64,000 nucleotides of DNA from a virus. Lineage: Duplodnaviria; Caudoviricetes. The stretch is taken from positions 26,847 to 90,846 of IMG/VR virus record IMGVR_UViG_3300020036_001753; one strand, 5' to 3'. Under the pieces are notes generated by a model, which was not told the origin of the DNA, did not search any database, and was given only the letters and a program-made list of their open reading frames with translations. Of the stretch, positions 1-41,749 are shown one piece after another. Numbering within the stretch: position 1 is the stretch's first letter; each line of letters opens with the position of its first letter. A program made the position numbers and the translations under genes.

Positions 1-2
1 CT

Positions 3-3000
3 CAGGGTTATATTAATAAAGTAGCAGAGTATGCACAAGTTTATTATTATAATGTGATTGAATCTAGCTATTATACTGGCGGAGGAGAGTCGGTTTATTC
101 TTACAATAAACCTAATTTTCTTACTAGATTTTTTAATAAGTTTACTAGATTAAATAAGGTTGACAGTCTAGATGCTACTAAAGATAAGCAAGATATTCTG
201 GATTTTATTAAGGAGTATATGCAAGATACTGGTATGATATTCAGTAATTGGGTATATGAGAATGGTAGTAATAATACCTTTTTGAAAGTTCGTCAAGGTG
301 AAAAGACTTTAGAGGAATTGACAATTGATGATCTTAATATCGAAGCTATTAAAAACTTTGAGTTTAATTTACTTGATACAGTTAAACAAGAGAATAGTAA
401 TGTTGTTGTGGATTATTCTTCTATGAGTGGTGAAGATTGGAAGATGTTTACGTTACTAGAATACTTGAATGGCGCAAAAGGATTTGCCAACATCCCTATA
501 TTGATACAGAGTGATAGTAGCAATATTTATACGCTGCAATTACCTAAGATTAGTATATACGAAGCTGGTTCAGTTTTTACTGATAAAGGCATTAAGCGTA
601 GCTCTAAGCTATTTAAAGCTGTAGAAAATACAGTTATTCAAGAAATAGCTAGAATGCAAGTAGCTAAAAATTTGTTATTCGATGAAATTAAGAATGATGC
701 TGGCGTAGTTATAGGCTTATCACCTAAGCAGTTTGATAATGCTATGCTTGCTTCTTTAGAACAAGGTTATCATTATGATACTTTAGGTAAAGATGGTCAA
801 CCTATTCTATTAGATTCTGCAGGATTTCCTACTGGAAGAGTATTTAAATTTCAGAATACTAATTATAGTTCTGCTACTGGAGAGATTATAAGTCTTAATA
901 ATTCTCCAGAGTTGTTTAGCTTTGGTATCTTTAGAAGAGATATGGTTAGAAATCTAATTATCAATGATCATATTGAAAGCTTTATTAATGATCTTGTTAA
1001 GTCTCATCTTAAGATTTATAAATCTTTTGAAGGCAATATAACTATAGCAGAGAAGGGTAAGAAAACAAAGTTGTTAAGTAGCTATTCTAATTACGCAGAC
1101 TTTATAGCGGAGTTTGCTATCAATACTTATTTATCTAATGTAGAGCAGTCTAATTGGATGTCTGGTCTTTTAGGACAATATAAGTCTTGGGTTGAAAGTA
1201 ATAAGAGAGCTAAGCAATTAACTTCTCCTGCACAAACTGCTGGAACTGCTTATAGAGGAGTTACATATAAAGCTGCTGTTGTAGAAGATGCAAACCTAGC
1301 ATCTTCCTATCTACAGGGAATAAAAGCCAGTTTGATTAGCAGTCTGAAAAATAAATATCCTGGTTTAGTATACAGAGAGAAAACAAAAGCTAAACGTAAT
1401 GCTTTAGAAATTGAAGTAGATAAGATTTTAAAAGCTTATAGCAGGACTACTGTTTCTGATGGACAATCATATATGACTTTGGATAGGCTTGAAAAAGTAC
1501 TTAAGGATTTTGGAAGATGGAATAAGAAGTATGAGATGCTTTTTGCTAAAATTAAAGCTGGTGCAACCTTAACTGAAAATGATATTAGTTTATTACTTGT
1601 ACCTATGAAACCTTATTACTATTACAAAAATGTAAATGGTAATACAAGTTCTGTAAGATCAACTCAAGTAAAGACAGCTATCATTCCTTTGATTCCTCAA
1701 TTGATTAAAGGTACTGGTTTGGAAAGAGTTCTAGCTAACATGGAGAAAAATAGTGTTGATGAGATTTATTTTAAATCTGCGGTTAAAGTAGGCGGAACTT
1801 ATACAAACAAGATACTTGATAATAAAGGAAATGTTCTTAAGAACTTTGATCTTATTGCTGCTGATTATTACAACGAAGGATGGGGATTGCAATTAGATTT
1901 ACCTCAACACTTGAAAGATCAGCAAAATAAGTTAGGGATACAGATAGCTAAGTTAATATTCAGTAACTTACCTGCTACAACACAATTTGCTGTAGGAAGT
2001 ACTACCTATACTGGCGAGCAGTTATTTAAACTGTTTACAGATTTGCAAGAAGCCAATCTTAAGCAGGACTTAAATACTTTGCTAGAGGAACTTGGAGTAT
2101 TCAGATTTGAGGAATTGTATGATGCTTTAGATAGTTTAAATACTGGTAGAGTAAGTGATCCTTCATTTGGATTTACTGATTATAATAAAGTTGCTGAGAT
2201 TCTTAAAGATGAGATAATCAAACGTAATTTACCTTTGCATTATCTTAACTTTATTGAATTAGATCCATTAGATAATACGTTTAAGATACCATTGTCTTTA
2301 GGATTTTTAGGTAACAAGTTTCAACAAATTCTTACAGCATTGTTTACTAATAGAATAACAGATCAAAAGTTTCCTGGGGGTCACGTTGCTCTTATTAGTG
2401 ATATTATGTTTACGCATATTGAAAATCCAACAGACTTAGGTATAGAATTTATTAGTACTGGAGAAAAAGGTAAGGAAGTTCAAGAGAGATTAAAATCCGG
2501 TAACTTTAGATTACAGCCTCCGATTATTGTAAATGAAACTACTTTGAAAGTAGAAGCTATTATGCCTGCTTGGAGTAAGAAGTTTTTTAAGAATGGTAAT
2601 AGAGTATCTATTAACGAAATTCCTGAAGAGCTTAGGACTATGGTTGGTTATAGAATTCCAACTGAAGAAAAGTATTCAATGGTAGTATTAGAAGTTATTG
2701 GATTTGCTCCTGAAGGTCTTGATACGTTTGCAATACTTCCTGGCGAATTAGTTACTAAAACTGGTTGGGATTTTGATATTGATACATTGTATCTAATGCA
2801 AAAAACTTTCGATGTTAATCTGAAAGAATATAAATATACAACAGATAGAGATAAGTTGTTTAGACAATTTGTTATCAATAGAACTAATGTTAATATTTAT
2901 AAAGATTTTGCAGAAGATAAGAAAGCTATTATCAAAGATTTTGCAGAATTTTATGGAGTGCCTGCTGATAACTTAGGTGAAGTATTTGATTATCTTAATC

Positions 3001-5585
3001 AGCTTATCGCAGATGAAAAGGAACGTCAATCTTTACTTGATTGGATTGATAATTCAGATATTACAGCATTACGGTTCGATATTGAATATGTAAAAGCTAT
3101 AGGACAAGAAATAGCAGAAGCAAAAGCACGTATTGCTACGACTGAAGAAATGTATCGTGATGAATTTAATGCCTATACTACTGAGGAACTAAATAGTAAA
3201 GCTGCTCGGAATAATAGAATATTTGATATCTTCAAAGGTATCCTATCTTCTCCTGATATATACGCACAAGCTATGACACCTGGTGCATTTTCTGATATGG
3301 CTGATCTTAAAACTAAAGTTGAAAAGCTAATAGGAGATTCAGGTAGTCGTTATAATCCTCATACTAGGGCTGGTCAAGATAGCTTTAGAGATAAGAATAT
3401 TTCTGGAGTTATTCTTAAAGGTATTTCTGCTTCTATTAATGGAGCGTTGCCTATATTCCAGCAAACAGAGTCTCAATTTAGTGACGATTTAGCTTTCACT
3501 ATAATAGAGAATGGCGAAACAAAAATATATAAAGCTATAGGTAAAAGAGATGACGGCACTGTTTATGGTGAAAACGGTAATCTTATTACTAATGGTACTG
3601 CACAATTACTTGGTAATACTGTTGATATTGTTAAGGAAGGATTTCCCTATAATATAAACGTGGAGACAGTTTATATATTTTCTGCAATGCTTATAACAGG
3701 TATTAGTATTGATTATGCTGGTACGTTTATACGTCAACCTATAGTAAATAAATATGTTTCTACTGTTATCAATGATAAAACTCTGTTTGGTTCAAATAAA
3801 TCTAATGCGTATTCTAAAGTAAAAAGAGAATATCAAACTAAGCTGTATCATTTAATGGTATCGGAAGGACTTATTGATACTAAAGATGCTGTTAAGAGAA
3901 AACAACTAGTGCTAAACAAAGAAAAGAATAAATGGGAATGGTCTGCTAAACCTATTTATTTACGTGAAGATGAATCTGCTATCTTAGAAGTTCCTGGTAC
4001 AACTGCTTGGAGTGTAGAAGAACTAAATGATATGTTAGCAGTAGAGAATCCTTATACAGTTTCTAAGCTATCTAATGCAGATAAAATTAAGTTTCTTAGA
4101 GAACAATTAGCTTTATTGGAAAGATACAGAGTTTATGAAAATACTGGACAAGCGTTACAATCTAATGTTAATCTTCTTGTTACAGATAAGATGGGAATCG
4201 GACCTAATATTAACGTTACTAGAGAATGGTCAGAACGTGTATCTGAAGAGATTAATAATAGTTTAGATAATGATAGTGGAATTTTCACTAAAGATGGAGA
4301 AGCTTTGCTTAGTGCTATTTATAGTAATGAAGAATCTGCTTACGCTCCTTTAGCTAATTATGTAACTTATGGTAATGCTCCTGGTTATAATATACTTAGC
4401 AAGCTTTTCTTTACTACTAGTAATAACTTTAATAACTTTAAAGATATTCTTAATATAAAGAATGGAGATGCTCTAGTAGATAATTACTTATTGCAAGCGT
4501 TAGTAAGTATGATGCCTTATGCACAAGCTCTTAATACTCCGGAAATACTAGGTATAAATAAAGAGTTTACGCCTGTATTTGATTTTACTTCGCAATCTAT
4601 TGAAGAGTTTGATGCATTAAGTACTGCTAACAAATTGTTCTTAATTAAGAATAACTTAACTACAGTGTTAGCTAAAGAAAGAGCGCATTTTCTTAACTTC
4701 TTAGAGCCAAACATCGACGCTAACGTTATTAAACGTAGAGGATTTCACTTTATCAATTTTAATAAGCCCAAGTCTACTGATAACATTGATGATACTATCA
4801 TAATATCTTTTGAAAAGCTTATTAACTCTGATAATAAGTTCTTAGCTAATTTAGGTAAGAGTTTGGTTGACTATAACGTAGCTTTGTATGGATTGAATTT
4901 TGCTTCTAATTCTTGGAGTAATTATATACCTGCTACTTATTTGGTTAATACTATGCAAGTTGATAAAGCTTTTAAGAATTACGAATTTAGATTGAATTCA
5001 GGAGAGACTTTAGTTTCTTATGATACTGATACTTTCTATAGAAATAATTGGGATAATACTAATATTGTTCCTCAAGTTTATTCTAATTATGCTAAAGATG
5101 CAAGTGGAAGATACCTTATGGAAGAGGATGAATATGGGCAACCATTAGGTTATGAAGTTATTGATAATAAACCTGATTGGTCGGCAGCTAGTAATAGTAG
5201 TATATTACCTATTAGCAAGAAGAGATTAGCTAAAGAAGATAGCAAGATTAAAAGAGCAAAGTTCTTGTTAATATCTAAACTAGTTAAAGGTGAAAAAGTT
5301 ACTACACTATTCAAACGGTATTTTACTGGAATACGTGAAATAGATAATATATACGATACTAAAATAAGTAATGCTGTATATTATTATCCTATCGGAAAGC
5401 TTGGAGGTAAGTTAAAAAATACCGAATTTACAGCCAATTCAATGTACGCTGAAAATAACGTTGCTTATCCAGCAGAAGTTTTTGAAAAGATGTTAGAACA
5501 TAAATATTTAGGAAATACATTAACTCCTTCGGAAGCTAAAGCTATAATAGAAGCTGAACGTAACGAAGATAAATCTTGTAAATAG
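3..5585 (+). CDS. Virion-associated single-chain RNA polymerase, crAss-like (5'-truncated)
   Basis: Frame is open from position 3, so the listed start at 54 is not the true start. GYRIPT and KTGWDFDIDTLY (catalytic DxDxD) motifs. SDGQSY, FKSAVKVG and GLQLDLP blocks are as recalled for crAss-like vRNAPs. Ends in TAG. Confidence 0.92.
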   Translation, partial: QGYINKVAEYAQVYYYNVIESSYYTGGGESVYSYNKPNFLTRFFNKFTRLNKVDSLDATKDKQDILDFIKEYMQDTGMIFSNWVYENGSNNTFLKVRQGEKTLEELTIDDLNIEAIKNFEFNLLDTVKQENSNVVVDYSSMSGEDWKMFTLLEYLNGAKGFANIPILIQSDSSNIYTLQLPKISIYEAGSVFTDKGIKRSSKLFKAVENTVIQEIARMQVAKNLLFDEIKNDAGVVIGLSPKQFDNAMLASLEQGYHYDTLGKDGQPILLDSAGFPTGRVFKFQNTNYSSATGEIISLNNSPELFSFGIFRRDMVRNLIINDHIESFINDLVKSHLKIYKSFEGNITIAEKGKKTKLLSSYSNYADFIAEFAINTYLSNVEQSNWMSGLLGQYKSWVESNKRAKQLTSPAQTAGTAYRGVTYKAAVVEDANLASSYLQGIKASLISSLKNKYPGLVYREKTKAKRNALEIEVDKILKAYSRTTVSDGQSYMTLDRLEKVLKDFGRWNKKYEMLFAKIKAGATLTENDISLLLVPMKPYYYYKNVNGNTSSVRSTQVKTAIIPLIPQLIKGTGLERVLANMEKNSVDEIYFKSAVKVGGTYTNKILDNKGNVLKNFDLIAADYYNEGWGLQLDLPQHLKDQQNKLGIQIAKLIFSNLPATTQFAVGSTTYTGEQLFKLFTDLQEANLKQDLNTLLEELGVFRFEELYDALDSLNTGRVSDPSFGFTDYNKVAEILKDEIIKRNLPLHYLNFIELDPLDNTFKIPLSLGFLGNKFQQILTALFTNRITDQKFPGGHVALISDIMFTHIENPTDLGIEFISTGEKGKEVQERLKSGNFRLQPPIIVNETTLKVEAIMPAWSKKFFKNGNRVSINEIPEELRTMVGYRIPTEEKYSMVVLEVIGFAPEGLDTFAILPGELVTKTGWDFDIDTLYLMQKTFDVNLKEYKYTTDRDKLFRQFVINRTNVNIYKDFAEDKKAIIKDFAEFYGVPADNLGEVFDYLNQLIADEKERQSLLDWIDNSDITALRFDIEYVKAIGQEIAEAKARIATTEEMYRDEFNAYTTEELNSKAARNNRIFDIFKGILSSPDIYAQAMTPGAFSDMADLKTKVEKLIGDSGSRYNPHTRAGQDSFRDKNISGVILKGISASINGALPIFQQTESQFSDDLAFTIIENGETKIYKAIGKRDDGTVYGENGNLITNGTAQLLGNTVDIVKEGFPYNINVETVYIFSAMLITGISIDYAGTFIRQPIVNKYVSTVINDKTLFGSNKSNAYSKVKREYQTKLYHLMVSEGLIDTKDAVKRKQLVLNKEKNKWEWSAKPIYLREDESAILEVPGTTAWSVEELNDMLAVENPYTVSKLSNADKIKFLREQLALLERYRVYENTGQALQSNVNLLVTDKMGIGPNINVTREWSERVSEEINNSLDNDSGIFTKDGEALLSAIYSNEESAYAPLANYVTYGNAPGYNILSKLFFTTSNNFNNFKDILNIKNGDALVDNYLLQALVSMMPYAQALNTPEILGINKEFTPVFDFTSQSIEEFDALSTANKLFLIKNNLTTVLAKERAHFLNFLEPNIDANVIKRRGFHFINFNKPKSTDNIDDTIIISFEKLINSDNKFLANLGKSLVDYNVALYGLNFASNSWSNYIPATYLVNTMQVDKAFKNYEFRLNSGETLVSYDTDTFYRNNWDNTNIVPQVYSNYAKDASGRYLMEEDEYGQPLGYEVIDNKPDWSAASNSSILPISKKRLAKEDSKIKRAKFLLISKLVKGEKVTTLFKRYFTGIREIDNIYDTKISNAVYYYPIGKLGGKLKNTEFTANSMYAENNVAYPAEVFEKMLEHKYLGNTLTPSEAKAIIEAERNEDKSCK

Positions 5586-5586
5586 T

Positions 5587-8500
5587 ATGATTTGTACTTT
5601 TAATGCACCAAACGGAGAAGCTTCAAATTTATATTCAGAAGTTAAAGATGCTTATGGTTCTTTAGCAGCAGAAGCTACGTATGCTTTTGTTAGAACTCCT
5701 GAATTTAAAGAACGATATCCAGAAGCTTTATTTTCTTATCAAGGTGAACCTGAATTTGGTTGGCTACTAACTAATAATTTAATTAGAAATTTTGCTGATC
5801 CTACACCTTTGGAAAGTAAAGTTTATCAAGATTTTACTAGATTAGCTGATATATTTGAGGAGTATGTACCTAACCTATATCTTAGAGAAGATACCGAATT
5901 GAATGCAAGTGCGGAAATAGGTTATGACGCAAATAATGTTCCTTACATAGCTTTCAATCCTAATAGAATTGCAGCTGATAGTATTTTTCATGAATTTGGA
6001 CACCTTTACGTAGATTTATTAGGATATACTAATCCTTTAATTCAGGCAGGTATTGATCAATTGAGAGGTACTACTCTTTGGAATAATATTCAAAGACTGT
6101 ATCCTGATTTGAATGACGAACAACTTGGAAAAGAAGTATTAACTACTGCAATAGGAAACCAAAGCTTACTTCTACAGGGAGATAATAAAATTGTATTTAT
6201 AATTAATCAGATACTTAGAAAGATTGCTGAACTATTAGGATTAGAAATAGACATAGCGAAGAAACTAGCTTCTGAATTAATTACTGGTAACGTTGAAAAG
6301 AAACTTAGAGGAAAACTCTCCCTGTATAGACAACAACGACGTTTTGAATTGGTTAATGATGCTTTTATAACTAAGAAAAGTTTTTTGATTAAAGCTAGAA
6401 ATTCACTTATCAAAAAGATAAATGATTTCTATTCGCATTTATCGGCAGCTGAAAAAGCTAAAGATATTAGTTATACTAAACTATCTACATTCAAGCAAAT
6501 GCTGGATAATGCTATTGAGTCTAACGAGGATATTGGTATCTTAAATTTCATTAAGAATACTTATGAACTAGCAACTAGTCTTAATGCAAGATTAGATCAA
6601 ATAGTTGATGGAACTTGGAGAGATGCTCGAACTGGAAGAACTGAAGTTACAGCTGAAGATATTCTTAATATTCAAAATTACAATAGTCTTTTTGGTTTAG
6701 CTACCGAATTGATTGAACTTGTAGAAACTGATCCTAGTTTGAAACTGCGTATTAGTATGTTAAAACTAGATAACGCTTTACAGGATATAGCAGCTAAACA
6801 TATTAAGATAGCAAATCTTAGTAAACAACTTGGTATCAAGATTGGAAGTAAGCTACTAAGAAAAAGCGGTGCAGGAATTAATAAAGAAGAAGCCTTACAA
6901 AGACAGAAGCTGGAAAGAGAATACAATCAAACAAATAAGGAAGAACGTAATGCCGCTAATACTCCTGGAAAGAAACGCAGATTTGCAGAGAAACGGACTA
7001 AGTGGGTGAATGAGCAATTGCCTAAGTCTGAAGATACTAGTTATTATGATTATATTTTACAACAATCTAATAGAGATATATCTTATTTAGACAGATTGTT
7101 TGTAGATGCGGATAAGCTTAATGATGAATTAATAAATACAGTTAGTGAAATTCTTGATAAAGTCGATTACGAAACCATGACTGCTGTAAATAAAGAATAC
7201 GATGCTTTAAATGCAGTATTCCTAGATTACAGTAAAAAACATCCCCAGGGAGATCAATTTGAAAAGTATAAAGATTTGCTTGAAGATGAAGTTATTTATA
7301 AAGATGGCAAAATTGTAAAGACTGGTAAAAAGAATACTAAATTAGCTAGTAAATATTATTCAATATTTATTGCTGAACATAATAAGGCTTGGGAAAAGTA
7401 TCATGAATTAGGTAATACTTTAGGTTACAAAAGTAAAGAAGCTAAAGCGGAGTATAAAAAAGTATTAGTTTGGCGTAACGCTAACATGGTTAATAAAGGT
7501 ACTAAAGCTGACCCAGTTTGGATTGCTAATGACAAATGGCTTAATCCTGCATATGATGCTATTAAAGACGATCCTATGTATAAGTATCTTACTAATTCTC
7601 TTATTGAAGCTGATTTAAATTTGCCTACGGCAGCTAAACTAGTTCGTAGTAGATATGGAGTTAACTCATTTGAATTACCTTCAATTAAGAGAAGAGGTCT
7701 AGAAAAGGTTTATCGCGATGGATTGTTTTCTACTATCAAAGAGAAGTGGGATGCTTTTTGGACTAAGTCTGCTGAAGATGATACTGCTTATGGAACTACA
7801 GTAGTTGTAGATACTTTGAATGACGCTTTGTTAGTAACAACTAATGAAGCTGGAGTTGAGCAAAACTCAATTCCGATTCACTTTAGGCATACTATTTCCA
7901 AAGAAGATCAATCCTACGATCTGCCTAGTATAATCTTATTGAATTATCATATGGCATTGAATTATAAAAACAAAACTAATGTTCGATTTGATATAGAATT
8001 AATCAGAACTTTGGCTGCCGAAAGAGATGTAGTTAAAACTGATGTAGGATTCTTGAGAGGTTTGAAATATAAGCTTGATAGAGTGTTATACAGAAAGACA
8101 GCAGATAAGGAATCTGATAAGCCTGGAGAACAAATTCCATTAACAGAAAAAGGAGAATTTAGTAATGCTTTTGCAGCATTAGATTCTATGATCGAACATA
8201 GATTATATGGAATTAGTACTTTATCTAGTGTTCAAGTTAATAAGATAGTTAATGCTATTGCTGGATATACGGGTCATACGTTGTTAATGCTTAATTATTT
8301 ATCAGCCGGAGCTAACTTAGCTACCGGTATGATGTATAATATGTTTAGAGTTTCTCCTAGATTTTATACTAGAGATAACTTTGCAAAAGCTCATGCTAAA
8401 TACGTAGCTAATATTCATACCATAGTTGGAGATATTGGAAAGCGAGTTCCTACTAGTAAAGTTAATTTGTTAATAAGAAAATTTAATGCTTTTGGAGATT

Positions 8501-9573
8501 GGGAAGCGGTAGCAAAACAATTTGTTAATGATACTAGACTTAAACAGATGGCAGATTTAGGAACAATGCACTTTATGAATCATAGTGCAGAGCATATGAT
8601 ACAGTCTATCTTAATGCTTTCTGTCCTAGATAACATTAAAGTTAAGAATAAAGATGGATTATATATTACTGCATCTGGCGAAACTACTGACGATATAAAT
8701 AAAGCGATGTCTTTAGACGAAGCTTATGATGTTATTGATGGAGATTTAGTATTAAAACCTGGTGTAGATTCATCTTCTTTTCAAGATAGTATTAATGATT
8801 CTGAAAGCTTTTCTAAAGATACAGAATTTTTAGTTAGTCGAATGATTAGGGAATTAAATTCTCAAATACAGGGGCAGTACAGTCCTCAAAAGAAAGCTGA
8901 AATTCAGAGACATTGGTATGGAGTTTTAGTTATGTTATTGAGAAAATGGATGCCTGCTGGATTAAAGTATAGATGGAGAGGTGTTGAAAGTATGTTTAAA
9001 GATAAGGATAATCTATTGGAAGATGAAATTTTCTATGACAAAGCTTTAAACGAAATTCAGGAAGGATACTACGTTACTACTGGTAGAATATTAACTACTT
9101 TGATAAGACACGGAAAGCAGATTAAATGGGAAATAGTAAAGCAAGAATGGAGTGAACTAACTGATGAGGAAAAAGCTAATGTTATTAGAACTGTTAAAGA
9201 ATTTGTTACAGTTGTAACACTTTTAGCTATCGGAAGTATGTTTAAAGAGATGGGCGACGATGACGAAGGAAATGTAGGTTACTATTTGATAGCTTTTTAT
9301 GCGCTAAGATTGCAACGGGAAATGATGACGTTTGTTAATCCTGCAGAATTTAGTTCTACAATTAGGACTCCAACCGTAGCTATTGCAATGTTAGATAGAG
9401 GTATAGCTTTACTTTGGCAAATGCTTCATCCTTTTGAAAGATATGAAACTGGTGCTAGAGATGGAGAGCTAAAGATAATTAAGAAGCTACAAGACTTTGT
9501 GCCGATTGCTAAGCAGATTGATAGAGAATTAGTAGAAGCAGTTAATTGGATGTATAGTAAGCGGATTAGATAG
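5587..9573 (+). CDS. Large virion cargo/ejection protein with zincin-like HExxH motif
   Basis: 1328 aa, starts 1 nt after the RNAP stop. DSIFHEFGHLY motif at 5989-6003. Largely helical with hydrophobic C-terminal segments. Position matches crAss-like cargo genes. Confidence 0.7.
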   Translation: MICTFNAPNGEASNLYSEVKDAYGSLAAEATYAFVRTPEFKERYPEALFSYQGEPEFGWLLTNNLIRNFADPTPLESKVYQDFTRLADIFEEYVPNLYLREDTELNASAEIGYDANNVPYIAFNPNRIAADSIFHEFGHLYVDLLGYTNPLIQAGIDQLRGTTLWNNIQRLYPDLNDEQLGKEVLTTAIGNQSLLLQGDNKIVFIINQILRKIAELLGLEIDIAKKLASELITGNVEKKLRGKLSLYRQQRRFELVNDAFITKKSFLIKARNSLIKKINDFYSHLSAAEKAKDISYTKLSTFKQMLDNAIESNEDIGILNFIKNTYELATSLNARLDQIVDGTWRDARTGRTEVTAEDILNIQNYNSLFGLATELIELVETDPSLKLRISMLKLDNALQDIAAKHIKIANLSKQLGIKIGSKLLRKSGAGINKEEALQRQKLEREYNQTNKEERNAANTPGKKRRFAEKRTKWVNEQLPKSEDTSYYDYILQQSNRDISYLDRLFVDADKLNDELINTVSEILDKVDYETMTAVNKEYDALNAVFLDYSKKHPQGDQFEKYKDLLEDEVIYKDGKIVKTGKKNTKLASKYYSIFIAEHNKAWEKYHELGNTLGYKSKEAKAEYKKVLVWRNANMVNKGTKADPVWIANDKWLNPAYDAIKDDPMYKYLTNSLIEADLNLPTAAKLVRSRYGVNSFELPSIKRRGLEKVYRDGLFSTIKEKWDAFWTKSAEDDTAYGTTVVVDTLNDALLVTTNEAGVEQNSIPIHFRHTISKEDQSYDLPSIILLNYHMALNYKNKTNVRFDIELIRTLAAERDVVKTDVGFLRGLKYKLDRVLYRKTADKESDKPGEQIPLTEKGEFSNAFAALDSMIEHRLYGISTLSSVQVNKIVNAIAGYTGHTLLMLNYLSAGANLATGMMYNMFRVSPRFYTRDNFAKAHAKYVANIHTIVGDIGKRVPTSKVNLLIRKFNAFGDWEAVAKQFVNDTRLKQMADLGTMHFMNHSAEHMIQSILMLSVLDNIKVKNKDGLYITASGETTDDINKAMSLDEAYDVIDGDLVLKPGVDSSSFQDSINDSESFSKDTEFLVSRMIRELNSQIQGQYSPQKKAEIQRHWYGVLVMLLRKWMPAGLKYRWRGVESMFKDKDNLLEDEIFYDKALNEIQEGYYVTTGRILTTLIRHGKQIKWEIVKQEWSELTDEEKANVIRTVKEFVTVVTLLAIGSMFKEMGDDDEGNVGYYLIAFYALRLQREMMTFVNPAEFSSTIRTPTVAIAMLDRGIALLWQMLHPFERYETGARDGELKIIKKLQDFVPIAKQIDRELVEAVNWMYSKRIR

Positions 9574-16439: not shown

Positions 16440-17144
16440 TCACTTGTTTTCAAAAAATTCTATAACTCGGTTAGCCATCGAGTCTTTCTGCATCTTTAAG
16501 TACTTGTCAAAATATGTCCAAACATCGTGACCTGCATGAATAACTGAATGCAACTCTATATTAGGACTAGTAGAATAAGAAGATGCTCTAATCTCATAAA
16601 TTGAGTTAGCCTCTGTCTTATAAAGTTTGCCAGTACTAGATAAAGCCATAGCAGAATCTTCAACTCCAGCTAAATCCATCTTATGAGCAAATCCGCCTTT
16701 ATAGGGAGTAGAATTATCTTCTATTCCATTAAGCATCATAACTCTAGGAGGCTTAATCGAAGATCCTGCTATTTTGACTAAAGGTTTTACAAGCGTTCCA
16801 GCTACAGCAAAAACATTGAGATCGCCTAAGTTCTTCTTTGCAGCAATCGTAAGAGCAAATACTGCGCCGCTAGATACTCCAACAATGTTAACTTCAGCAA
16901 GAGTAGTAAGTTCTGCAATTTCTCGCTGAATTATCTCAATAACTTTAGTAACATCTCGATCATAATTCCAACCTCCAGTTGGAGTATCAAAGTAAATGCC
17001 AATAAACTTATCTTGTTGCTTGGCAAACATTTTTGTAAATTTAGTAGCTTTGCCAGTTATTCCTGGAAAGCCTACTATAACCTTCTTTACATTATAATGG
17101 GAAGGCACTACTACTTCATAATGATATTCTACCATTTTAATCAA
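16440..17144 (-). CDS. Alpha/beta-hydrolase (esterase-like)
   Basis: Nucleophile elbow IVGVSSGA (GxSxG), acid in MLNGIED, His in HAGHDVW. Confidence 0.75.
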   Translation of the reverse strand: MIKMVEYHYEVVVPSHYNVKKVIVGFPGITGKATKFTKMFAKQQDKFIGIYFDTPTGGWNYDRDVTKVIEIIQREIAELTTLAEVNIVGVSSGAVFALTIAAKKNLGDLNVFAVAGTLVKPLVKIAGSSIKPPRVMMLNGIEDNSTPYKGGFAHKMDLAGVEDSAMALSSTGKLYKTEANSIYEIRASSYSTSPNIELHSVIHAGHDVWTYFDKYLKMQKDSMANRVIEFFENK

Positions 17145-17340
17145 TAGGTTGTTCTACGTAAGTAGGTCGTGAATAAGGAACGCCATTAGCGTCGTGAGTA
17201 ACTTTTACTAACTTAACAGCTTTGGTAGGCTTACCAGTAGTGCTGCTAGCTTGATCGGCTTTTACAGAATCTTCTAAATCTTTTCCATTAATAATAGGAA
17301 AATTTCTGTTAAAATTACCAAAACGAATTTGATCTGCCAT
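17137..17340 (-). CDS. Hypothetical protein
   Basis: 67 aa with an AT-rich leader; overlaps the next start. Confidence 0.6.
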   Translation of the reverse strand: MADQIRFGNFNRNFPIINGKDLEDSVKADQASSTTGKPTKAVKLVKVTHDANGVPYSRPTYVEQPID

Positions 17341-30193: not shown

Positions 30194-30270
30194 TGGTACT
30201 TCTGACAGGACTCGAACCTGTAACCTACGCTTTAGAGGAACGTCGCTCTATCCAATTGAGCTACAGAAGT
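30194..30270 (-). tRNA. tRNA-Arg(UCU) with atypical C33 and encoded CCA
   Basis: Manual cloverleaf: acceptor ACTTCTG/CAGAAGT, D arm GCTC-AATTGGATA-GAGC (A20, the Arg identity element), anticodon arm ACGTT-CCTCTAA-AGCGT, T arm ACAGG-TTCGAGT-CCTGT, 3' ACCA. Confidence 0.9.
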
Positions 30271-36946: not shown

Positions 36947-37101
36947 GATAGAAGATTATAGTATTATTAATAATAAAGAAGGTTGGGTTTTGAGAGGGGA
37001 TAGGGATTGATAAGGATGAGAATAAAATTTGAGGGAAGGGAATTAGAAGATATATTAATAATGAGATTGATAGAGTGGAGATTAATTGGAAAATAAGGTG
37101 T
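36945..37101. other. 157-nt tract with no C on the + strand (no G on the transcribed - strand)
   Basis: Read directly: last C at 36944, next C at 37102; about 46 G in between. Confidence 0.9.
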
Positions 37102-37174
37102 CGTAGAACCTGGCGCGCAAGCGCCAATCGCTCCACGAACACCTTTCACCAACTATAATCAACTCCTTTTCTCT

Positions 37175-37423
37175 TTAATAACTCTTCATTAAGCTAAATA
37201 TCCCCCAAGCGGGCAATATCATCGCAATCACTAGCCATATCCAACCAATAGTTATACCTATATCACAAAGCTTAATCAATTTTGTACTCTGTAATTCAAT
37301 TCGGTTTGGATACTTGTTCTTGTCCATTATCAACTTTAATTTGAAGTTCGCTAATAGACAAATCAATAACACCGGTAATCCTATATTCAGGACTAATGGC
37401 ATTATGCTAATTTCGAGCATCAT
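37175..37423 (-). CDS. Small two-TM membrane protein
   Basis: 82 aa with two hydrophobic helices. Confidence 0.65.
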   Translation of the reverse strand: MMLEISIMPLVLNIGLPVLLICLLANFKLKLIMDKNKYPNRIELQSTKLIKLCDIGITIGWIWLVIAMILPAWGIFSLMKSY

Positions 37424-37608
37424 TTTTTCTTCTTGGGTTTAAAATATTCAACAGCATACCTGGCAGCAAGGCGAAGTCTTTCTCGCTTCGCTCCCTTGTT
37501 TACACCGAATTTAGCATCTAAATATGCTATTTTTTCAATAGTCGTCATGGCATCGTATGCCTCTTGACGCTCTTGTGCTTCTCTGAACCTTTGCTCTCTG
37601 CTTTTCAT
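37420..37608 (-). CDS. Small charged phage protein
   Basis: REAQERQEAY...KIAYLDAKFG..KGAKRERLRL, a pattern recalled from other phage hypotheticals (not verified). Confidence 0.65.
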   Translation of the reverse strand: MKSREQRFREAQERQEAYDAMTTIEKIAYLDAKFGVNKGAKRERLRLAARYAVEYFKPKKKK

Positions 37609-37690
37609 AACCTGAGTTTTAATTAATTAATAATATAAGTGTAATGACGAACTCTAGTCTCGCCGGCTTCGCCGCCTCGAACTAAAGCGC

Positions 37691-37722
37691 AAAAGAAAGC
37701 CCAAGTGCGCGAGCACTTGAGC
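37691..37722 (-). terminator. Intrinsic terminator
   Basis: caagtgc-gcga-gcacttg stem followed by TTTCTTTT on the minus strand, after the 37746-38471 gene. Confidence 0.7.
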
Positions 37723-37745
37723 CTTCTCTCTTCATCCTAAATCCG

Positions 37746-38471
37746 CTATTTCTTGCCTTTCTTCGCCAATGCAAGCTGGGCTTCCAACGCCGCTACAGCG
37801 TCGATAACTTCAGCAGGCTCTTCGGGCGCAACTTCGATGTTCTCTTCGATATGTTCATCGGCACCGAAGATGTCCGGTACTTTCGTATCCACTGTCGGTG
37901 GCACAACGACTGTTGCTGCTTTTACCGGCTGACGACGAGCTTCCCGACGCTCTTTCGCAATGGCAAGGCGATCTTCTTTGATAACCTCCATCGTGATCTC
38001 ATGCAACTCTTCTTTGACTTCCGGAGAAAGTTCAAAAGATTCGTTACCAGACCGATAGTGAGGTATCGTGTATTCGCCAACTACTCCGTCACGGGTAGTG
38101 TAAGTGTCACCTGGCGTAATAGGCCAAATATCCATGCTAAGATAAATGGCACCAACACTGGAACTCAAAAGTGACTTGAGATCGTAGATACTAAGATCCA
38201 CGTTATCGCAAAGAGTATCCAGATAACCAGGCGCAAAAGTAAACGTCGTTGCAGTCGTTGGGTGACCCTTGCCGGTAGTCACGACAGCAAGCCTGCCTGT
38301 AGTCCTGTTAGGTATCGTATTAATCCGGCTAATAGCCATTTTAATACGCTTAACTCCCGTAGGATTAGCAGCTTGAAATGCGGCTACTTCTTTAGCCCAA
38401 TTAGCAAGATACAGCTCTTTTTGAGCGGCTGATAATTGCTCATACTGGTCTTTAGACAAAATCTGAAACAT
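37746..38471 (-). CDS. Early-region hypothetical protein
   Basis: 241 aa, raised GC, acidic Pro/Glu-rich C-terminal region; preceded by a 14-bp motif copy and followed by a terminator. Confidence 0.8.
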   Translation of the reverse strand: MFQILSKDQYEQLSAAQKELYLANWAKEVAAFQAANPTGVKRIKMAISRINTIPNRTTGRLAVVTTGKGHPTTATTFTFAPGYLDTLCDNVDLSIYDLKSLLSSSVGAIYLSMDIWPITPGDTYTTRDGVVGEYTIPHYRSGNESFELSPEVKEELHEITMEVIKEDRLAIAKERREARRQPVKAATVVVPPTVDTKVPDIFGADEHIEENIEVAPEEPAEVIDAVAALEAQLALAKKGKK

Positions 38472-38514
38472 AATAATAGAATTGAAATATGAAAGAATAT
38501 GAAAATGTCAACTA

Positions 38515-38528
38515 TCAGTAGGTTGTTT
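38515..38528 (-). promoter_or_regulatory. AAACAACCTACTGA motif, copy D
   Basis: Exact 14-mer; 43 nt before the ATG at 38471; hairpin 38550-38588 upstream. Confidence 0.7.
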
Positions 38529-38529
38529 T

Positions 38530-38759
38530 CTATCGTGGTCGGTGTAATAAAAGCAATCCCCAACCGCTGCAGCAGTTGAGGATGCTTTCGCTACTACTGT
38601 TAGGTGGCCAATCCTAACTATTTCGCATCTAATAGCCGGCAACATAAGCCGGCAGGCATTGCCCTCGCTATCGCCGGCAAATCGGAACACTAGTCCGGAC
38701 GGCACCATGATCGCTGCGAGGGCTTAATTGGATGCTAATTCTTTATAGCCATCCAAATA
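38530..38759 (-). ncRNA. Candidate structured non-coding RNA
   Basis: About 50% GC; at least six inverted repeats; bounded by motif copy C and a terminator-like hairpin with a T-run. Confidence 0.5.
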
Positions 38760-38773
38760 TCAGTAGGTTGTTT
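38760..38773 (-). promoter_or_regulatory. AAACAACCTACTGA motif, copy C
   Basis: Exact 14-mer; hairpin 38793-38826 upstream. Confidence 0.7.
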
Positions 38774-38831
38774 CTTATTATGGTAAAGGATGGAGTAATG
38801 CAATCCTCTTTCGGACTGCATTACTCTAGGA

Positions 38832-39146
38832 CTATACGTCTGGATGCCCAAAGTCCTCAATAGTGGAACGGCTTATCTGCGTATTAGGTTTAGGGAACAG
38901 CTTTCTGCGGAGCTCTTGCAGCCCCTTAAGCTGCTGCTTATATTCCCGTATTTTGGCAGCATGCCCGCCAATAGTCAGAAGATCAAGTTCTTTGGTAGCT
39001 ACGATGGCTTCCAGTTCCTTCATCTCCATTAAAGCGATATTTGCTTTGCAGGTTGCAATATTGGCATTAATACGGGCAATAGCCAATTTAGCAGCGGCTT
39101 TGGCAACCATGTCACCGCTGTTTTTCAATAAGAATTCGTAATCCAT
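38832..39146 (-). CDS. Helical hypothetical protein (104 aa)
   Basis: Start reassigned to MDYEF at 39146; the longer ORF would run through a motif and a hairpin. Confidence 0.7.
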   Translation of the reverse strand: MDYEFLLKNSGDMVAKAAAKLAIARINANIATCKANIALMEMKELEAIVATKELDLLTIGGHAAKIREYKQQLKGLQELRRKLFPKPNTQISRSTIEDFGHPDV

Positions 39147-39187
39147 TGTAATAGATTTAGAAGATGAGTTAATATAATGAACTGTAT

Positions 39188-39201
39188 TCAGTAGGTTGTT
39201 T
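39188..39201 (-). promoter_or_regulatory. AAACAACCTACTGA motif, copy B
   Basis: Exact 14-mer; 41 nt before the ATG at 39146; hairpin 39219-39248 upstream. Confidence 0.7.
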
Positions 39202-39259
39202 CTGCTCTTCAAGCAGTATTGCAAGCAACCTAGTAAGGCTACTTGCAACTTGCGGAGTA

Positions 39260-39604
39260 TCATTGTTCGTTGCCGCAAGGGCAACTGTAAATCCATGCAC
39301 CATCATAATCATTTCTATGATTAAGATTAGTGCATTCGTGTCTCATTGCTGTAATCACCTCAATACCATATTGGTAATCAGGATGGTTACAACCATGTCC
39401 ATCGCATTCGCATATCTCTTCGCAAACGCCATTTAATGCTGGATGGCATTCGTGATCAGTAGCTTCTGCTGCATAAGCAGCTTCTGCACGAAGATGCTGC
39501 CAATCCTCATACAGTGTAGTATTGACAATAATAACCCAAAGCAGCATGGTAATACCAGTTGCAATACACATCGCTCCAAAAATCATGCCTACAATACGTT
39601 CCAT
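39260..39604 (-). CDS. Membrane-anchored Cys/His-rich protein
   Basis: N-terminal TM, then HECH...CEEICECDGHGCNH...HEC...CPCG. Confidence 0.65.
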   Translation of the reverse strand: MERIVGMIFGAMCIATGITMLLWVIIVNTTLYEDWQHLRAEAAYAAEATDHECHPALNGVCEEICECDGHGCNHPDYQYGIEVITAMRHECTNLNHRNDYDGAWIYSCPCGNEQ

Positions 39605-39691
39605 AATAATAGCTATATTAGTTTGTTATTGCATTATTGCAAAAATCAGCCCTTGCCGTAGCAAAGACTGATTCATGAAACAAACTATATC

Positions 39692-39895
39692 TTAAATGTG
39701 ACCTTGATCTGCAAGTTCATTTACAATTATTCCCCAAAAGGCTCCTGCTACAACAAACATTATAAACCATACCAATGCTATTGCGTCATTTACTCCACGC
39801 TCCATTCCGAACATAAAGATAACGAGGTTTGATAATGCTGCCCATAATCCAAAAAACAGAAAAGGTAATAATAGAATAATGATGATCTTTTTCAT
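39692..39895 (-). CDS. Small two-TM membrane protein
   Basis: Probable start MKKIII at 39895; two hydrophobic helices. Confidence 0.65.
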   Translation of the reverse strand: MKKIIIILLLPFLFFGLWAALSNLVIFMFGMERGVNDAIALVWFIMFVVAGAFWGIIVNELADQGHI

Positions 39896-39936
39896 AAGAA
39901 TGAAGTTTACGATGATGAACGATAACATAGCAGCAA

Positions 39937-39950
39937 TCAGTAGGTTGTTT
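39937..39950 (-). promoter_or_regulatory. AAACAACCTACTGA motif, copy A
   Basis: Exact 14-mer; 41 nt before the ATG at 39895; perfect 11-bp GNRA hairpin 39963-39988 upstream. Confidence 0.7.
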
Positions 39951-40396
39951 AATATACTAAATGAGTAACGGTATTGCTACCGTTACTCTACAATGCAGGA
40001 ATACTGCAAGGTGATATTAATATACATACATAACCAAGATCTTTAGATAACGAACACACGATTCGTTACCATTCTTGGTTTACAAAACCATACAAGATAC
40101 TATGATAAAAGGAAGAGCAACCTTAGCAGCATTGCACTGTTCAAGCTGCTCTCCTTTGTTCATCATAGTATGTTTAGCAATCTAATACAATCGCCTGTGG
40201 GCAATTCTGCGGCTTTAAGGCGGGGGTACTTCGATCGCTCAATAATCAGTGGGGGGCTTTGATTACGGTGGGTCACACCTATCTGTCAATAGCATATTTC
40301 AAAAATTTTTACTATAATTTTCTCTACACCTATATATAAAGGCGTACTTCGCCCATCCGCTTATTTTACTACTCCAAAATAAATTAGCTTTACTTA

Positions 40397-40427
40397 TTGC
40401 GTAGTAAATAATATTGCTGTATCTTTG
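40397..40427 (+). promoter_or_regulatory. Bacteroidota housekeeping-type promoter of the late operon
   Basis: TTG (40397-40399)-N20-TATCTTTG (40420-40427) matches -33/-7 TAnnTTTG; ATG at 40449. Confidence 0.65.
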
Positions 40428-40448
40428 TATCAAATTTAAAGAAAGCGC

Positions 40449-41075: not shown

Positions 41076-41749
41076 TTAGCAGTAGGTTATTTTATTTAGA
41101 TAGAGAAACAGGAGACGTTATTATTGATGATAATTATGTAAAGACCGTTCCAGAGTTCAATGCACTTTACAAAAGGAAAAAGGAACAAGGAATGAAAGAG
41201 TTGAAATTTGTTTTTTTCATGGCAGATTGGACTGCTGCAAATTATCTAAGAGATTATGATGATAAGCAGCGGTCTAATTTAGCTTTGAAAGATAGCAAAT
41301 TGTCTAATGATTGGACTCCTGATGCAGCTGTTGGTAAGGCTATTACTAAGTATATAAATATTCAAATTGAGTATTCAGGTACTATTAAGATGCTAATTAC
41401 TTTACGCAGAGCAATTATGTCTAAAGCAGAAGCTGTTGATTTATTAGATAGGCAGAATAAAAGACTACTTAGCAGGATTGAACAGTTGATGACGGAAGAC
41501 ACGATGGGATATAACGTTGCAGAATTAGCTACTATTGATGAAGCTATTGCAGCAGCTAATGAAAAGTTTGTTAATAATAGTAAAACAATAACAACGCTTA
41601 CTACTGATTATGAAAGAGGTATTAAGCTTGTCAATGATCTTGAGACTAAGGTTAAAGAAGAAACAGAAGCCATGCTCGAGATTACAGGGAAGAGAAAACT
41701 AGGTAATAGAGAATTGCCTACCGAACGAGCTTGGGCTAAAATGATATAG
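41072..41749 (+). CDS. Conserved late-module hypothetical protein
   Basis: 225 aa; WTPDAAVGKAITKY followed by a coiled coil. Confidence 0.7.
   Translation: MISSRLFYLDRETGDVIIDDNYVKTVPEFNALYKRKKEQGMKELKFVFFMADWTAANYLRDYDDKQRSNLALKDSKLSNDWTPDAAVGKAITKYINIQIEYSGTIKMLITLRRAIMSKAEAVDLLDRQNKRLLSRIEQLMTEDTMGYNVAELATIDEAIAAANEKFVNNSKTITTLTTDYERGIKLVNDLETKVKEETEAMLEITGKRKLGNRELPTERAWAKMI

Follow-up and report, generated by a model that had tools for sequence, protein, structure and literature searches.

A small, probably non-coding RNA gene in a mini-cassette array of an uncultured crAss-like phage

The phage genome and its mini-cassettes

The window analyzed in this work, i.e., the whole stretch of 64,000 nucleotides, comprises positions 26847-90846 of a 90.8-kb IMG/VR virus record, which is rated complete by CheckV. 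The source is an uncultured crAss-like phage with a genome of 90.8 kb. Its large terminase, portal and major head protein match PHROGs of the crAss type, a Dda-like helicase and a DNA polymerase are located on the minus-strand arm, and at 3-9573 there are two giant ORFs, as would fit a virion RNA polymerase block. The minus-strand arm begins at about 39950, adjoining the point at which the two arms of the genome diverge. Between the divergent arms lies an ORF-poor gap of about 500 nt (39950-40448) with GC-rich tracts and strong hairpins, within which the minus-strand segment 39997-40229 has a fold z-score of -4.1. This gap could contain control elements or another RNA.

The first part of the minus-strand arm is structured by the 14-mer AAACAACCTACTGA, of which four exact copies were found, all on the minus strand and with no further copy elsewhere in the genome. 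Each copy is preceded by a hairpin, and the resulting cassettes have the form AAACAACCTACTGA, payload, hairpin. The features that delimit these cassettes are:

39937-39950, minus strand: exact copy of AAACAACCTACTGA
39188-39201, minus strand: exact copy of AAACAACCTACTGA
38793-38826, minus strand: hairpin at the end of the preceding cassette, which carries the 104-aa gene; it is separated from motif copy C by 19 nt, was read from the sequence and is kept in relatives
38760-38773, minus strand: motif copy C, an exact AAACAACCTACTGA, presumed to be a phage-specific promoter or start signal of the RNA unit
38515-38528, minus strand: motif copy D, likewise exact; it forms the downstream limit of the RNA unit and opens the cassette of the 241-aa gene, whose ATG is at 38471

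Three of the four copies are followed by an AT-rich and pyrimidine-rich leader of 41-43 nt and then by an ATG, and the payloads of these three cassettes are small orphan proteins. The third copy in the order of the arm, copy C, leads instead into the element which is the subject of this work.

The search with the 14-mer alone against IMG/VR returned single chance matches only, and no instance of a two-motif pattern with the spacing of the cassettes was found. A copy with one mismatch at 17141-17153 was discarded, as it lies inside the end of a coding sequence and looks like chance. Another near-copy, AAATAACCTACTGC, is located at 41078-41091 on the minus strand, antisense to plus-strand genes at the junction of a 69-aa and a 225-aa ORF. 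All relatives covering this site have it at the same position, and it may be an antisense start signal or a product of chance.

Relatives of the locus were collected from JGI, NCBI and Logan assemblies, to which the protein clusters of both neighboring genes had led. A total of 29 loci of close relatives was obtained, which reduce to ten distinct rows and to five distinct versions of the element. Relatives of the exonuclease gene were only 24-36% identical and too distant for use, and for the 241-aa neighbor zero relatives were found in IMG/VR. The element is present in every relative covering the site with an identity of 92-99%, and motif copy C is found in all of them, with single substitutions in L143, the most diverged relative, and in L153. 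The known distribution is narrow and so far comprises strain-level relatives only.

The early region of these genomes is a mosaic of recombination patches, and for this reason the variation is clustered. In cassette B of L143 the payload protein is only 34% identical, and the motif is kept; one base is inserted in the leader, giving a spacing of 42 nt. The respective segment of L143 (2077-2636, corresponding to 38832-39201 of the window) carries a 167-aa allele in place of the 104-aa protein, and the adjoining RNA is near-identical. Payloads seem to be swapped within fixed cassette borders. In the relative L146 about 700 nt of the region 39400-40100 are missing or replaced, which affects the first cassette and most of a 114-aa gene, and just three motif copies are retained.

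The 241-aa gene downstream of the element (37746-38471) has a GC content of about 50% in a genome of 34% GC. It encodes an orphan protein known from this phage lineage only (one cluster at 90% identity with 12 members), with a C-terminal part that varies in length to give proteins of 241, 244 or 248 aa. No Pfam or PHROG match and no usable Atlas match were obtained for this protein, and its AlphaFold model was too poor for use (pLDDT 43).

Anatomy and fold of the element

The element is located on the minus strand between two exact copies of AAACAACCTACTGA, extends from 38759 to about 38546 and has the same sense as the flanking genes. The transcript would have a length of about 215 nt (211-225 nt). 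As the preliminary description had stated, its first base adjoins motif copy C. Folding sets in at the sixth base, there is no AT-rich leader, and for this reason the extent and strand sense proposed there (38759 down to 38530) were retained. In its format the RNA unit matches the protein cassettes, and the distance from its terminal hairpin to motif copy D is 21 nt, compared with 12-19 nt between hairpin and motif at the other cassette borders.

The GC content of 0.49-0.50, given before as about 50% in a genome of roughly one-third GC, stands against 0.336 for the complete 90.8-kb genome; yet the neighboring genes at 37600-39500 also reach 0.40-0.53. The high GC content is therefore not peculiar to the element but common to the genes around it. 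The same applies to its stability. The minimum free energy (MFE) is -86.4 kcal/mol for the minus strand versus -77.9 kcal/mol for the plus strand, and the z-score of the MFE is -3.8 to -4.1; however, seven other 233-nt windows of the arm have a z-score of -3.9 or below (8 of 28, counting the window of the element itself). The fold stability is thus not unusual for this arm. What raises the element above chance is the pattern of substitutions in its relatives, as the z-score alone does not set it apart. The lowest values in the arm, with fold z-scores of -5.4 and -5.7, were obtained for two windows at 36962-37427 on the minus strand, which overlap a C-free tract and a mini-hairpin listed separately in the preliminary description.

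The proposed structure consists of the following parts:

38725-38759, minus strand: P1, 5' hairpin of 6 + 4 bp with a bulged G and two weaker outer pairs, loop variable
38661-38723, minus strand: P2, long hairpin with a GC-rich base of 8 bp and an uncertain middle
38682-38698, minus strand: apical stem-loop of P2 (cgga/tccg)
38635-38653, minus strand: P3, hairpin GCCGGC / 7-nt loop / GCCGGC
38630-38634 with 38592-38596, minus strand: P4, tentative long-range helix uauua/uagua, deduced from the substitution pattern
38599-38618, minus strand: P5, hairpin with the invariant loop AUUGGCCA
38546-38589, minus strand: intrinsic-terminator-like structure, composed of a hairpin of 18 pairs with one bulge (38549-38589) followed by UUUUAUU

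Most of these helices had been recognized in the preliminary description. The stem ttggatg/catccaa (38728-38756) corresponds to P1, in the refined form with the bulged G; gccctcgc/gcgagggc (38661-38723) is the base of P2 and the enclosed sub-stem cgga/tccg its apex; gccggc-N7-gccggc (38635-38653) and gttagg/cctaac (38599-38618) were found again as P3 and P5. The final stem with a T-run corresponds to the terminator-like hairpin, which a terminator scan also predicts on the minus strand. Only the stem ctatt/aatag had to be given up: in L143 three of its five pairs are left, and the helix uauua/uagua fits the observed changes better. This helix, P4, encloses the invariant segment AUGCGAAA and P5 (38592-38634). 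It is thermodynamically weak and absent from the MFE fold, and both P4 and the middle of P2 have alternative pairings, the latter in the fold of L140. The modeled pairing of these two parts is uncertain.

The orientation of the RNA is indicated by the wobble pairs. The terminator hairpin contains U-G wobbles, which would be C-A mismatches if read on the other strand, and at six positions of the structure a G-U or U-G wobble is present in most versions, with zero A-C on the minus-sense strand. This pattern fits a minus-sense RNA and not a symmetric DNA element.

Comparison of the five versions revealed which parts of the structure vary. All 12 pairs of P1 are invariant, and changes are confined to its loop and to the bulged G; one relative has a different base at this bulge, and in another the base is missing. 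At the tip of P2, pair 69-77 changes from A-U to U-A in the L140-type versions, where a U-A pair is gained and the loop altered. In the middle of P2, pair 58-89 is C-G in the L140-type versions versus G-C, and the window's own version has G-G at this position. P3 of L143 has an altered loop, one base shorter, and its terminal pair is broken. Within P5 the same relative shows two compensatory double changes (G-C to A-U and U-A to C-G) and keeps the loop AUUGGCCA. P4 displays two compensatory changes, one change from G-U to C-G and one break. The terminator, motif copy D and the following leader are invariant in all relatives. When each version was folded separately, P1, the base of P2, P3 and the terminator were kept, the tip of P2 appeared with small shifts and P5 was obtained in four of five versions.

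When all versions are scored on the proposed structure, pairing is found in 98% of 345 cells; in L143 there are two cells with a broken pair. The number of pairs that are altered on both sides and nevertheless still paired is six, versus 1.4 +/- 1.0 in shuffles (0/500), and controls with a slid structure gave zero to two such pairs. All three indels are unpaired, being located in one bulge, one junction and one loop. The six compensatory pairs represent few independent events, because the five versions stem from two or three recombination patches, and R-scape-type statistics, which had been recommended for the collection of homologs, would be powerless with this number of versions and events. 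Within these limits of five versions, the alignment shows that the predicted fold is conserved through compensatory changes.

The mosaic nature of the region also has to be considered for a second reason. If the covariation arose from recombination patches, the stretch may be a decayed cassette or a spacer without a function of its own, in which only the terminator and the two motifs matter. This reading would agree with the few independent events and with the comparable fold stability which is common in the arm, and also with the mean pairwise divergence of the element. At 0.063 the latter equals that of the neighboring genes overall and is not lower, so that the element is not unusually conserved as a whole. 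A neutral sequence, however, would be expected to diverge at least as strongly as the third codon positions of the neighbors (0.10-0.24), and the observed value is about half of this. Moreover, pairing is kept at the six doubly changed pairs, the indels avoid paired positions, and no relative that covers the site lacks the element. The spacer reading is therefore regarded as quite unlikely. From the comparison with third positions it follows instead that the element is constrained about like a gene, with a pattern that tracks the pairing of an RNA and not codons.

Coding potential of the overlapping ORF

The only ORF at the element is the following:

38508-38708, minus strand: ORF of 66 aa that overlaps the element and is not regarded as a gene

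This ORF had been described as running through the terminator and the next motif, and these two features do make up its last third (38708 to 38508, including motif copy D). Its frame is open in every one of the ten distinct rows. L143 owes this to two indels separated by 27 nt, an insertion (+1) and a compensating deletion (-1), through which nine codons are rewritten and no stop codon arises. The ATG is located 51 nt after the motif, which is near the 41-43 nt of the other cassettes, and the codon score is better in frame 0 than in the other two frames. These observations would agree with a true small early protein that evolves fast, in which case the hairpins would be incidental.

The pattern of substitution points in the opposite direction. 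Codon-level conservation, which the preliminary description had named as a check on the non-coding reading, gave no support for the ORF: 8.5 non-synonymous changes versus 1.5 synonymous ones were counted (pN/pS of about 1.8), whereas the flanking genes have a pN/pS of 0.1-0.5 in the same genome pairs. The amino acid changes are radical and located exactly at the compensated RNA pairs. The AUG (38706-38708) is held within the P2 helix and the leader before it is GC-rich, in contrast to the AT-rich ones of the neighbors, and termination at the hairpin would leave the ORF without a stop codon, because its last third consists of terminator and next motif. The three codon positions hardly differ in GC content (0.55/0.51/0.45), and in codon score the ORF ranks last among the nine genes compared. 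No Pfam or PHROG match was found for the 66-aa sequence, no homologs were detected, and its exact sequence is missing from a collection of 15 billion proteins. Gene callers skip the ORF wherever the element of a relative is whole and call it only where a contig end cuts the element. Within the limits of five versions, the sequence comparison shows neither purifying selection nor coding constraint on the 66-aa ORF, and a small protein as the product of this cassette is very unlikely.

Compensatory pairs, indels in unpaired positions and an ORF free of purifying selection agree with the initial proposal of a structured non-coding RNA of about 230 nt between motif and terminator. We consider it likely that the stretch is a gene for a stand-alone structured non-coding RNA within an array of presumably early mini-cassettes, i.e., a small and probably non-coding RNA gene in a style that is known from crAss-like phages.

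One further reading accepts the RNA but places it in cis. Here the element would serve the 241-aa gene as its leader and act as an antitermination RNA or as an attenuator of the riboswitch kind, with a regulated terminator and with read-through from motif copy C that adds to the expression of the gene or controls it. In all relatives the element does directly precede the 241-aa gene, even in L143 with its very different upstream allele. Riboswitches classically consist of a structured domain with a terminator behind it, which is also the order seen here (domain of about 170 nt), and the invariance of terminator, motif copy D and leader is in line with a regulatory unit. Between the terminator and the ATG of the 241-aa gene, however, there is a full motif with a standard leader of 43 nt. 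The gene thus has its own copy of the presumed start signal, just like the other cassettes, and therefore needs no read-through. The 21 nt between hairpin and motif resemble the other cassette borders, no known aptamer class matches in Rfam and no alternative antiterminator pairing stands out. A cis-acting leader is accordingly judged unlikely.

Comparison with known phage RNAs and possible modes of action

The assumption that the element is neither a tRNA nor a tmRNA nor a known ribozyme was supported by database searches. With the 4227 models of Rfam 15, applied to the whole window at gathering thresholds, no match was obtained at the element, and ARAGORN found no tRNA or tmRNA there. The sole other RNA gene detected in the window is a tRNA-Arg gene at 30197-30270 (Rfam gathering thresholds), and ARAGORN also reported one tRNA-Arg. 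A sensitive Rfam scan of 38300-39000 gave only chance-level matches to SprX (17 bits versus a threshold of 80) and sar (15 versus 43), the latter covering the terminator hairpin only. The covariance model R1, built for the element, detected only the element itself in its own genome, with no paralog, and no match in distant relatives. BLASTN of 37600-39400 against GenBank phages yielded no match. Exact 22- and 24-mers of the RNA are absent from IMG/VR and GTDB genomes, and among metagenome contigs they occur in one contig, which had already been collected. The RNA therefore probably represents a new sequence family with no catalogued relative.

In its layout the element can be compared with several phage RNAs. 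The OOP RNA of lambda, the sar RNA of P22 and the CI RNA of P4 have a length of 70-80 nt and are antisense to a neighboring phage gene. Like the element, for which the start signal is presumed, they are short units with their own start signal, a stem-loop body and a terminator composed of hairpin and U-run, and they are located in an early or regulatory region. In contrast to them the element is about three times longer and multi-domain, and it has no antisense partner and no complementarity of more than 12 nt in the genome. The pRNA of phi29 is a structured phage RNA of about 170 nt, which is transcribed from an early promoter and has conserved helices and variable loops. It works via complementary loops which pair between copies, as part of the phi29-type packaging motor. 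The element shares the conserved helices and variable loops; however, no complementary co-varying loop pair was seen on inspection of the alignment, and the phage has a standard large terminase and portal.

The closest precedent is found in the crAss-like Cellulophaga phage phi14:2, for which two abundant early long non-coding RNAs were described in the intergenic regions g004-g005 and g005-g006 (Drobysheva et al., bioRxiv 10.1101/2020.03.07.982082). These RNAs exceed most mRNAs from the earliest time point on and persist through infection, and they are uncharacterised (bioRxiv 10.1101/2020.03.07.982082). Like the element they are non-coding units near the start of the early arm and have the sense of the early genes. 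There is no homology in sequence or structure, and model R1 had no match in positions 1-9000 of phi14:2. The g004-g005 gap comprises 364 nt, is AT-rich and has no marked fold stability (z-score of -1.4), whereas the element has about 215 nt and 50% GC. The early transcripts of phi14:2 are without a common upstream motif (bioRxiv 10.1101/2020.03.07.982082), which differs from the exact 14-mer described here. Within the g004-g005 gap (L162:1620-1983) we also observed a T-arm-like GGUUCGAAUCC followed by an ACCA end; ARAGORN found no tRNA in this gap.

Among the few characterized non-coding RNAs of phages and prophages are the Racr RNA anti-CRISPRs and the CBASS-activating cabRNA, both of which act by binding host defence proteins (PMC10884466). 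This is the mode considered most likely for the element. Racrs mimic the CRISPR repeats of the host (PMC10884466), but no repeat-like module is present in the element.

Based on the cassette format and the fold, the following course of events can be proposed. The array of mini-cassettes would open the replication or early arm, with one of the cassettes carrying an RNA as payload. AAACAACCTACTGA would serve as promoter, recognized by an RNA polymerase which is either the phage's own or a redirected one, and the RNA unit would be transcribed early and released at the terminator. The transcript would fold at once into the 5' hairpin P1, the branched P2, the GC hairpin P3, the P4/P5 domain and the terminator, giving a stable RNA which is capped by hairpins at both ends and which may act in trans.

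As to the mode of action, the RNA could possibly bind or sequester a host or phage protein and serve as a riboregulator or decoy; this is proposed tentatively. The roles suggested in the preliminary description, a decoy for defence proteins, an antitoxin mimic or a regulator of RNA polymerase, are likewise hypothetical. Binding of a protein is favored because the RNA is multi-helical and GC-rich, because its stems are kept while most apical loops drift, and because no antisense target was found in the phage genome, where the search for antisense partners and targets gave only chance complementarity of up to 12 nt. Second to this, a role in base pairing via the invariant unpaired segments AAUGCCU and AUGCGAAA and the loop AUUGGCCA is conceivable but rather doubtful. 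A TROVE/Ro protein, the partner of Y RNA that is seen in crAss001, is not encoded in this genome.

Several more specific ideas were discarded. P3 is not a plausible mimic of an anticodon loop, as its loop is not conserved. A GAAA-tetraloop receptor in P5 turned out to be a regular helix and is lost in L143, and a pairing with the motif via CAGUAG is lost in the same relative. The cluster of 6-bp palindromes, regarded as a restriction decoy, comprises seven where about 3.6 are expected and is not conserved. Apparent diversifying selection on the loops was set aside, as the whole region is a patch mosaic.

The role of non-coding RNA in lytic phages was described as essentially unexplored in a 2024 review (PMC10884466). 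The element offers a compact and well-delimited example of such an RNA, the fold of which is partly supported by its relatives, as well as a target of defined extent (about 215 nt), the helices of which can be tested. In view of the narrow distribution, the finding is a solid lead and not a surprise. CrAss-like phages are among the most abundant viruses of the gut and of the environment. To our knowledge, almost nothing is known about the roles of their early genes, for which the RNAs of phi14:2 are the sole experimental hint. It is a speculative thought that the cassettes are transcribed by the virion RNA polymerase and that one of them delivers, in the first minutes of infection, a stable structured RNA which disarms or redirects a host protein, be it a defence sensor, a nuclease or the host RNA polymerase. 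If the host-disarming reading were true, crAss-like phages would have an early effector made of RNA only; in lytic phages this role has, as far as we know, so far been filled by proteins only. Because the RNA sits in a cassette format which is common to protein genes, the array suggests that in crAss-like phages RNAs and small proteins are interchangeable as payloads when infection begins.
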